Below are positions 12,223 through 12,908 of a DNA stretch of 64,000 nt, piece by piece. Position numbers and translations under genes: made by a program. The notes beneath the pieces were generated by a model. The model did not search any database, was not told where the DNA came from, and worked only from the letters and a program-made list of their open reading frames with translations. The stretch's first letter is position 1. Every line of letters starts with the position of its first letter. The DNA comes from a virus (lineage: Duplodnaviria; Caudoviricetes): positions 18,906-82,905 of the IMG/VR virus record IMGVR_UViG_3300037478_000646; one strand, given 5' to 3'.

Positions 12223-12249
12223 TGTCACATTATCTATCATAGTATGACA
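12223..12249. promoter_or_regulatory. Imperfect palindrome TGTCACATTA-TCTATCA-TAGTATGACA; candidate recombination site or operator overlapping a possible promoter (TTGAAT 12217, TAGTAT 12240)
   Basis: Arms match 8/10 around a 7-bp core; 56 bp upstream of a tyrosine recombinase gene. Confidence 0.45.
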
Positions 12250-12305
12250 GAAAATGTAGAAAACACGTCCGTCCAGCAAGTTTTTATGGACTTGCACGGC
12301 AAGCA

Positions 12306-12908
12306 ATGTCACCTTACATCATGCATAGTGTGAAACTCGACCTTTCAGACGACCATGGCAAGCGAAAATACCTCACCAAAACGGAATGTGTCCGCTTCGT
12401 CGAGGGCGTAAAGACGCTGCCGCCCAAGATCAGGATGTATTGCCTGACGCTACTCTACTCTGGCGCGAGACGACAAGAGGCGCTAGCGATCCGGCGAATG
12501 GATGTCGATCTCAATGCCGGCGAGATCGCGATCAAGACGCTGAAGCAGAAAGGGGGAAAGTTTTTCTATCGGCGGGTGCCGGTCCCAGACTCTCACCTTC
12601 AGGCACTCGACATGGTTTTCGACCTGAAACGCGGTAAGAGGGAAGAACGGCTGTGGCCGGTGACGAACCGGACGGCAAACAGGTGGATCGAGAATGCGTT
12701 GAACGCAGCAGGGATAGAGGGGCATTCCCCGAAATCGCTACGGCATACTTTCGGGATCATGATGGTGATGAGCCGGACGCCGCTGACACTGATCCGGAAA
12801 ATGATGGGGCATTCGAACCTCAACACGACCGCGATCTACACGACGCCGCTCGGAGAAGAAGCAAAGGATCACGCCAAAAAGACATGGCAAATGCTGGATA
12901 TGGAATAA
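12306..12908 (+). CDS. Small tyrosine recombinase (catalytic domain only, resolvase/Xer-like)
   Basis: SGARRQE (R), KSLRH (K replaces the usual H of HxxR), MMGH (H), TAIY (Y); 200 aa with no N-terminal arm-binding domain. Confidence 0.9.
   Translation: MSPYIMHSVKLDLSDDHGKRKYLTKTECVRFVEGVKTLPPKIRMYCLTLLYSGARRQEALAIRRMDVDLNAGEIAIKTLKQKGGKFFYRRVPVPDSHLQALDMVFDLKRGKREERLWPVTNRTANRWIENALNAAGIEGHSPKSLRHTFGIMMVMSRTPLTLIRKMMGHSNLNTTAIYTTPLGEEAKDHAKKTWQMLDME

Follow-up and report, generated by a model that had tools for sequence, protein, structure and literature searches.

How TIGR arrays gain their guides is an open question, and a tyrosine recombinase gene that touches such an array has drawn interest for that reason. 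The gene lies in a 64,000-nucleotide stretch of DNA (hereafter, the window) comprising bases 18906-82905 of an 82,905-bp IMG/VR virus record, IMGVR_UViG_3300037478_000646, whose source is an uncultured 82.8-kb tailed phage; together with the DNA just upstream of it, the gene occupies positions 12223-12908 of the window. In the preliminary description of this locus, the enzyme was put forward as a candidate for array remodelling, or for guide-directed recombination with the neighboring nuclease-less Tas protein, TasA. The present analysis points to a different answer. With a probability of about 70%, positions 12223-12908 constitute a self-contained and probably self-regulated site-specific recombination module of the Xer/Cre/TnpI type, next to which the TIGR-Tas locus looks like a chance neighbor and not a partner. 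The best supported parts of this answer are the family of the enzyme, the integrity of its catalytic residues, a site that is conserved and covaries, the sharp edges of the module, and the lack of co-occurrence with Tas.

The recombinase, P0001, scored 70.6 bits with the Pfam profile Phage_integrase (PF00589; cut-off 27.1), residues 21-180 covering positions 1-167 of the 172 in the profile; the first profile position falls at residue 21, or at residue 16 when counted from the likely start. No match to the core-binding domain families PF02899 and PF13495 was found in P0001, and no additional N-terminal domain of this kind is present in an AlphaFold model built on 16 relatives (mean pLDDT 86.8). 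The catalytic residues R55, K80, R146, H169, and Y178 are unchanged across 16 clade members, which makes the enzyme look competent for catalysis. At position 143, where the HxxR motif has its first His, P0001 has Lys and its relatives have His, Lys, or Arg. The span of the PF00589 match and the conserved catalytic residues thus bear out the earlier description of a tyrosine recombinase consisting of the catalytic domain only. The best Foldseek match of the model was the XerA catalytic domain (PDB 5hxy; E 1e-9, TM 0.72), with further matches to the catalytic domains of XerH, IntI4, and the HP1 and lambda integrases, and a profile search of PDB sequences agreed on the nearest folds. As confirmed with Pfam on the genome, the PF00589 gene, open from 12306 to 12908, is the sole recombinase gene of the whole phage.

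Translation of P0001 probably begins at the ATG at 12321 (MHSVK...), because all homologues align from there; the ATG at 12306 belongs to an invariant DNA motif and is out of frame in other loci. No Shine-Dalgarno sequence precedes the recombinase start in 11 of 12 loci, while other genes of the source phage, including tasA and the HNH-like gene upstream, do carry one. This difference suggests that the recombinase transcript is leaderless or nearly so.

P0001 belongs to a distinct and uncharacterised clade, and it is the sole member found beside a TIGR-Tas locus. A word-indexed search returned 15 relatives with 44-75% identity, all of 163-216 aa and all with the catalytic domain only, and a full HMMER scan returned 577 cluster representatives at E < 1e-10, mostly of 185-210 aa; in the C-terminal extensions of some distant family members, no extra Pfam domain was found. 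Genomic contexts were examined for ten close relatives (L002-L012) and for two from IMG/VR (L176 and L177), 13 clade contexts being counted in all. These are early regions of phage genomes with phage genes on both sides, the neighbors including ERF, RecT, NinB, HNH, and helix-turn-helix (HTH) genes. Among isolate phages, no relative above 35% identity was found, and blastn with the locus gave no match. Viral contigs likewise gave no matches when scanned with the single recombinase or Tas protein sequence, and it was the alignment-based scans that succeeded. Across the genomes of 185,579 species of bacteria and archaea (one genome each), the top match reached 31% identity.

The imperfect palindrome with 10-bp arms and a 7-bp core that had been noticed upstream of the gene was confirmed (site I in Table 1), and it is supported as a good candidate for a recombination site, being conserved, covarying, and located at the module edge. 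Its sequence is TGTCACATTA / TCTATCA / TAGTATGACA; the arms are complementary at 8 of 10 positions, or at 9 of 11 if the center is taken as 5 bp, and the 82.9-kb genome contains a single copy. Within the window, site I does not stand out statistically: 61 comparable 10-7-10 sites with at most two mismatches were counted there, against approximately 30 in shuffles. Its significance is to be sought in its conservation in 11 other loci. When the 140 nt before the start codon were aligned for the 12 loci, site I was found at about −100 to −72 from the ATG in every one of them, with its outer TGTC and GAC invariant or nearly so. The inner arms differ among loci yet stay complementary, three loci being symmetric only in the outer 5-6 bp. 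Moreover, 8 of the 12 arm pairs are altered on both sides in a compensatory manner, 74% of cells pair in register as compared with 32-49% when the partner is slid, and at most 7 of 500 shuffles matched any of the observed measures.

An RNA hairpin or intrinsic terminator was considered for site I and rejected, as the folding energies range from −3 to −18 kcal/mol with no consistent U-tract; no Rfam family matched positions 12200-12320. Given that three loci keep only the outer base pairs and that the RNAalifold consensus fold amounts to −1 kcal/mol, site I fits a dimeric protein site better than a hairpin. The stronger conservation of the outer over the inner arm positions would also fit a protein made only of a catalytic domain, by analogy with Cre, whose catalytic domain reads the distal major groove in Cre-loxP structures. 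Two further ideas about this region were discarded. A mini open reading frame starting at the invariant ATG of the ATGTC motif is not conserved in frame or length, and the small genes bracketed by inverted repeats at 9.5-10.7 kb of the genome have arms of the CCTTGAAGG type, unlike those of site I.

A second element related to site I lies over the start of the gene. At one mismatch or fewer, the only other copy of a site I arm in the genome is found at 12307-12316, 84 bp away and in direct orientation, within what is termed here the third half-site. The ATGTC of this half-site is invariant in 12 of 12 loci, 15-16 nt before the start codon, and a degenerate inverted partner (GACAT) follows 22 nt 3′ of it in about half of the loci. 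A −35-like element (TTGAyt/TGGACy) stands 17 nt 5′ of a −10-like hexamer in all 12 loci, with the ATG start 6 nt past the hexamer, so that a promoter may be placed in this conserved stretch. The third half-site is probably an auto-repression site, and possibly also an accessory site comparable to those of TnpI/IRS.

The palindrome, the promoter-like stretch, the ATGTC half-site, and the gene form one discrete module of approximately 0.7 kb that is present in 12 uncultured phages. In eight pairwise nucleotide comparisons, similarity rises exactly at site I and drops to background at the stop codon. Indeed, the window and L002, whose recombinase is 75% identical, share nothing outside the module, and the flanking genes are unrelated. 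Farther downstream, the endolysin gene and the giant gene about 5 kb 3′ of the recombinase are syntenic between the window and L007 and L009. What lies between, in an island bounded by the early operon on one side and the convergent lysis genes on the other, varies: TIGR-Tas, DUF7873, a tRNA, and Y-RNA-like RNAs in the window (12909-17000), a cytosine DNA methylase and a SocA/Panacea-like gene in L007 (6594-8700), and Ro60/TROVE in L006 (6600-10800). On this comparison, several cargoes replace one another in a hypervariable island that starts right after the module, and the TIGR-Tas cassette is one of them.

Table 1. Features of the window discussed in the text, with positions in the window
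Feature	Positions	Strand	Remarks
Site I, imperfect 27-bp palindrome	12223-12249		11-5-11 or 10-7-10; outer TGTC...GACA; candidate core recombination site, left module edge
Between-sites stretch	12250-12305	+	Purine-rich box GTAGAAAAC (12256-12264), T-run, −35-like TGGACT (12287-12292)
Third half-site ATGTCACCTTA	12306-12316	+	Same orientation as site I left arm; overlaps −10-like hexamer 12310-12315; ends 5 nt before start
Minimal tyrosine recombinase coding sequence (P0001)	12321-12908	+	195 aa; reading frame open from 12306, 200 aa; no Shine-Dalgarno
TIGR array 1	12915-13738	+	~23 units, 36-nt period; context, absent from all homologue loci
tasA (P0003), nuclease-less Nop-domain Tas, 333 aa	13769-14770	+	PF02371, phrog_4285, NF052498
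TIGR array 2	14783-15226	+	~12 units, 36-nt period; context
Cys-rich HNH-like protein, 180 aa	11674-12216		Weak PHROG HNH matches, no Pfam match
Cro/CI-type HTH gene	6546-6911		Early operon
4352-aa open reading frame	19325-32383	−	Adjoins endolysin; syntenic giant reading frame (>2316 aa) in L007, 31% identity over 387 aa

An arrangement of the same kind was seen in distant minimal recombinases with 33-35% identity to P0001 (L253, L254, and L258), which have palindromes of their own, different in sequence, approximately 55-85 bp before the start. The palindrome of L254 (~4917-4945) is a perfect 12-5-12 repeat, and those of L253 and L258 are 10-4-10 forms. These observations suggest that the gene-plus-site layout is general for the family of minimal recombinases; and because the distant enzymes carry different palindromes at the same position, site and enzyme appear to co-evolve.

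A mechanism can be proposed from these features. Two recombinase monomers would bind the outer ATGTC/GACAT motifs of site I, and strands would be exchanged across the 5-7-bp center with a second copy of site I on a sister or dimeric phage genome. Such an exchange would monomerise or circularise the replicating DNA, as in Cre/loxP, Xer/dif, or TnpI/IRS. Binding to the third half-site, over the −10 region and start codon, would allow the recombinase to repress its own gene, and this half-site may double as an accessory site comparable to DR1/DR2 in Tn4430. On this view, array 1, tasA, and array 2 make up a TIGR-TasA cassette that would be a lineage-specific insertion directly after the stop codon of the recombinase. 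The best guess for the biological role, held at slightly less than even odds, is a Cre/loxP-like one, in which replicating genomes are reduced to monomers or circularised.

Comparison with known systems places the module among those with a single recombinase and a single site (XerS/difSL, XerH/difH, and Cre/loxP), to which it would be most similar, with an extra half-site reminiscent of TnpI. The protein itself is Xer-like by sequence and fold and FimB/FimE-like by architecture, and it scores below the membership cut-offs of both groups. Its best matches are XerA (NF040815, E 2e-19) and XerH, and like XerA/dif, XerS/difSL, and XerH/difH, the module combines one recombinase acting alone with a simple palindromic site of ~27-28 bp beside the gene. 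Site I (~27 bp, conserved, and adjacent) has the right geometry for the 11-6-11 target of the dif type, as a candidate site only. However, P0001 lies far below the NCBIfam equivalog cut-offs for XerA (70 bits against 220), XerC (49.5 against 335), XerD (44.5 against 330), and XerS (28 against 267). It lacks the whole N-terminal core-binding (SAM-like) domain, it is phage-encoded rather than chromosomal, and no evidence for FtsK control or a role in chromosome segregation was seen here. As in the FimB and FimE invertases (~200 aa), no other domain precedes the catalytic one, and residues 15-180 align end to end with positions 5-178 of the 200 in the PRK09870 profile. Nevertheless, the FimB and FimE scores are 41.7 and 41.6 bits against cut-offs of 221 and 222, and site I, being unique in the genome, forms no inverted pair around an invertible segment. 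P0001 also differs from the integron integrases (TIGR02249, 50.6 against 265 bits), and the neighboring repeats are 36-nt TIGR units, not attC.

With Cre/loxP of phage P1, the module shares a phage tyrosine recombinase located beside a single palindromic site, Cre needing no accessory proteins. Cre circularises and monomerises the P1 genome. Unlike P0001, which it resembles remotely (Foldseek E 1e-3), Cre possesses a clamp domain at its N-terminus and acts on a 13-8-13 site, and P1 is a plasmid prophage with partition genes, none of which were found in the source phage. In Tn4430, the TnpI/IRS system comprises an inverted-repeat core together with direct-repeat recombinase-binding motifs beside the gene, and the extra motifs impose resolution selectivity (PMC2847244). 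Here, too, a core inverted-repeat site is accompanied by an additional motif in direct orientation adjoining the recombinase gene. In contrast, TnpI is full-length, with two domains, and belongs to a Tn3-family transposon, whereas no transposase is present here, and the extra half-site is one rather than two and overlaps the promoter.

Several points weigh against this reading. Its mechanistic steps, namely binding, strand exchange, autoregulation, the leaderless start, and the biological role, are all ones that we infer. The center of site I varies between 4 and 7 bp across loci, which is unusual for orthologous core sites. By E. coli standards, the promoter elements at −35 and −10 are weak, and a consensus promoter scan returned neither of them. 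Phage packaging from concatemers has no obvious need of dimer resolution, and no plasmid-maintenance genes were found in the genome, making the role uncertain. Furthermore, one contig described below (L014) leaves some room for a link confined to a small TasA subclade (n = 2).

Alternatively, the module could be an integration system, with P0001 as a minimal integrase, attP at the palindrome, and lysogeny in an unsampled host. Besides being the only recombinase of its genome and having its site beside the gene, which is the normal int-attP layout, P0001 has as its best phage-family matches PHROG 216 and PHROG 1, both annotated as integrase, and a Cro/CI-type HTH gene is present in the early operon. 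However, no prophage copies were seen: no clade relative exceeds 31% identity in the species genomes, and 13 of 13 clade contexts are phage-internal rather than at a prophage end. On these two grounds an integration role is disfavoured. The enzyme is, in addition, without an arm-binding or core-binding domain, and its site is a palindrome rather than an attP with arm sites, making this alternative unlikely.

It is also conceivable, at distinctly low odds, that the protein is mainly a DNA-binding regulator, or an enzyme that nicks DNA site-specifically or works like a topoisomerase, in its own promoter region, or that the upstream elements are operators of another factor. Such a role would account for two related sites about 84 bp apart, one of them over the promoter and start codon, and for the single full site per genome; the longer spacer of the second site (22 nt as compared with 18-19 nt) suggests an operator that does not recombine, and a GerE- or MarR-like HTH gene is located directly 5′ of the recombinase in L002, L008, and L010. 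However, the full catalytic set, tyrosine nucleophile included, is unchanged throughout the clade, and this speaks for catalysis. Nor is an upstream HTH gene a constant feature: the window has the HNH-like gene in that position, which is itself not kept beside the recombinase in any other locus, and only the recombinase co-varies with the sites.

The idea that the recombinase serves TIGR-TasA as a functional partner, by remodelling or expanding the array or by recombining sites chosen or bent by TasA-tigRNA, draws first on their adjacency. The adjacency stands: the stop codon is at 12906-12908 and the first repeat of array 1 (AGCACCA) starts at 12917, with 8 nt between. No promoter-like site was found on the plus strand at 12300-13700, and array 1 may therefore be read through from the recombinase promoter, which would make co-transcription likely and would be the only probable coupling of the module to TIGR-Tas. 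In addition, an enzyme without a DNA-binding N-terminal domain might need help in targeting. In the literature, the spacer origin of TIGR arrays is stated to be unknown, TasA is reported to lack clear protein associates and TIGR systems to lack linked candidates for adaptation, and TasA-induced DNA bending has been speculated to aid phage integrases (Faure et al., 2025; PMC12045711). A search for literature linking a tyrosine recombinase with TIGR-Tas found none.

The distribution of the two genes, however, largely refutes a partnership, as co-occurrence fails in both directions. Starting from the recombinase, a Tas gene was found by tblastn in none of the 13 clade contexts, and a Tas profile found nothing over the whole records of L176 and L177 (92 kb and 57 kb). 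A Tas hidden Markov model (HMM) was also run over 247 recombinase loci (2.14 Mb), made up of the 13 clade contexts and 234 distant relatives from genomes, viral contigs, and metagenomes; with the window as positive control (E 3e-151), it gave one weak match of 24 bits, among the distant loci, which is probably of the IS110 type. Starting from TasA, whose relatives are abundant (4779 matches), the recombinase HMM matched in 4 of 80 viral loci with ±6 kb of flanking sequence, all four in long open reading frames. Over the whole of the 50 largest viral TasA records, PF00589 was found in 5, in reading frames of 394-757 aa that are full-length integrases and never minimal; among TasA records at least 90% complete, it was found in 3 of 14. 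The homologues of P0001 thus occur mostly without TIGR loci, and the proposed function in array remodelling or TasA-guided recombination is not upheld.

One contig resembles the window in its layout. In L014 (79-3182), a TasA relative (P0174, 66% identity) is followed by an array, a 68-aa reading frame, a gene for a HicB-like antitoxin, and a recombinase of 186 aa with the catalytic domain only. That recombinase, which lies 1.5 kb 3′ of tas, on the opposite side of tas from that in the window, is not an orthologue of P0001 (E 0.005), and the remainder of the contig shows no relationship to the source phage. We read L014 and the window as two examples of one type of genomic neighborhood. The conserved sites of the module's own recombinase are, moreover, unlike TIGR repeats. 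When array 2 was compared with that of a 97%-identical relative (L013, 1650-2160), the distal units were identical, and the tas-proximal ones were partly private to each phage, some sharing one spacer only, that is, half-unit mosaics joined at the repeats. Most simply, this turnover would come from ordinary recombination between repeats. A functional partnership is thus highly improbable. A specific form of it, in which TasA-tigRNA binds and bends guide-specified DNA and so replaces the missing N-terminal domain, giving RNA-guided site-specific recombination in this lineage, is kept in view because the array abuts the gene, with probable co-transcription, and because of the neighboring recombinase in L014; the odds against it are longer still.

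A third TIGR-like array, with both repeat motifs the same, was observed outside the window (G000:C1:~5400-5870, minus strand; L175). It lies approximately 27 kb from tasA, inside a nominal 215-aa reading frame, and with no recombinase beside it, which likewise counts against a partnership. The TasA protein itself scored 199 bits with the NCBIfam family NF052498 (TIGR_Tas_endo), whose cut-off is 100, and a further Tas relative, P0173, is 74% identical to it.

Two other possibilities were dismissed, an invertible switch because the genome contains no second full site, and a plasmid prophage because ParA and ParB (PF13614 and PF02195) and a serine resolvase were searched for in the complete 82.9-kb genome and none was found. 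Of the simpler alternative offered in the preliminary description, a ResD/Xer-like multimer resolvase of a plasmid-like prophage, the resolvase half comes close to the recombination module favored here, and the plasmid half lacks support, as neither ParA nor ParB was found.

With respect to the genome as a whole, the record carries a 127-bp terminal repeat of a length expected for an assembler k-mer overlap, from which the phage genome is taken to be a closed circle. Its tailed-phage genes include those for an endolysin, tail proteins, a portal-like protein, the large terminase, and a primase/helicase, in addition to the 4352-aa reading frame of the virion type. A tRNA is located at 16443-16510 (Rfam, 58 bits), and just 5′ of it, at 16300-16407, is a sub-threshold match to the Y RNA-like YrlA family (29 against 69 bits); no Ro60 gene was seen in the source phage, and the relative L006 encodes one. 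At G000:C1:533-1378 on the minus strand (L175), the CBASS inhibitor Acb3 (Pfam PF25187) was matched over its full length at 279 bits, with two DNA methylases close by (3585-4325 and 6527-7321 in G000:C1).

For the question with which we began, the co-occurrence data remove a false lead on how TIGR arrays gain guides, and the half-unit mosaics of array 2 offer a view of natural unit turnover that bears on array evolution. For the recombinases, the module adds to a recurring and unexplained class, that of minimal recombinases in phages without lysogeny genes. Finally, the module is compact, at approximately 0.7 kb for recombinase and site together, and since comparison across the clade gives clear evidence for the target site, it lends itself to trials as a recombination tool of very small size.

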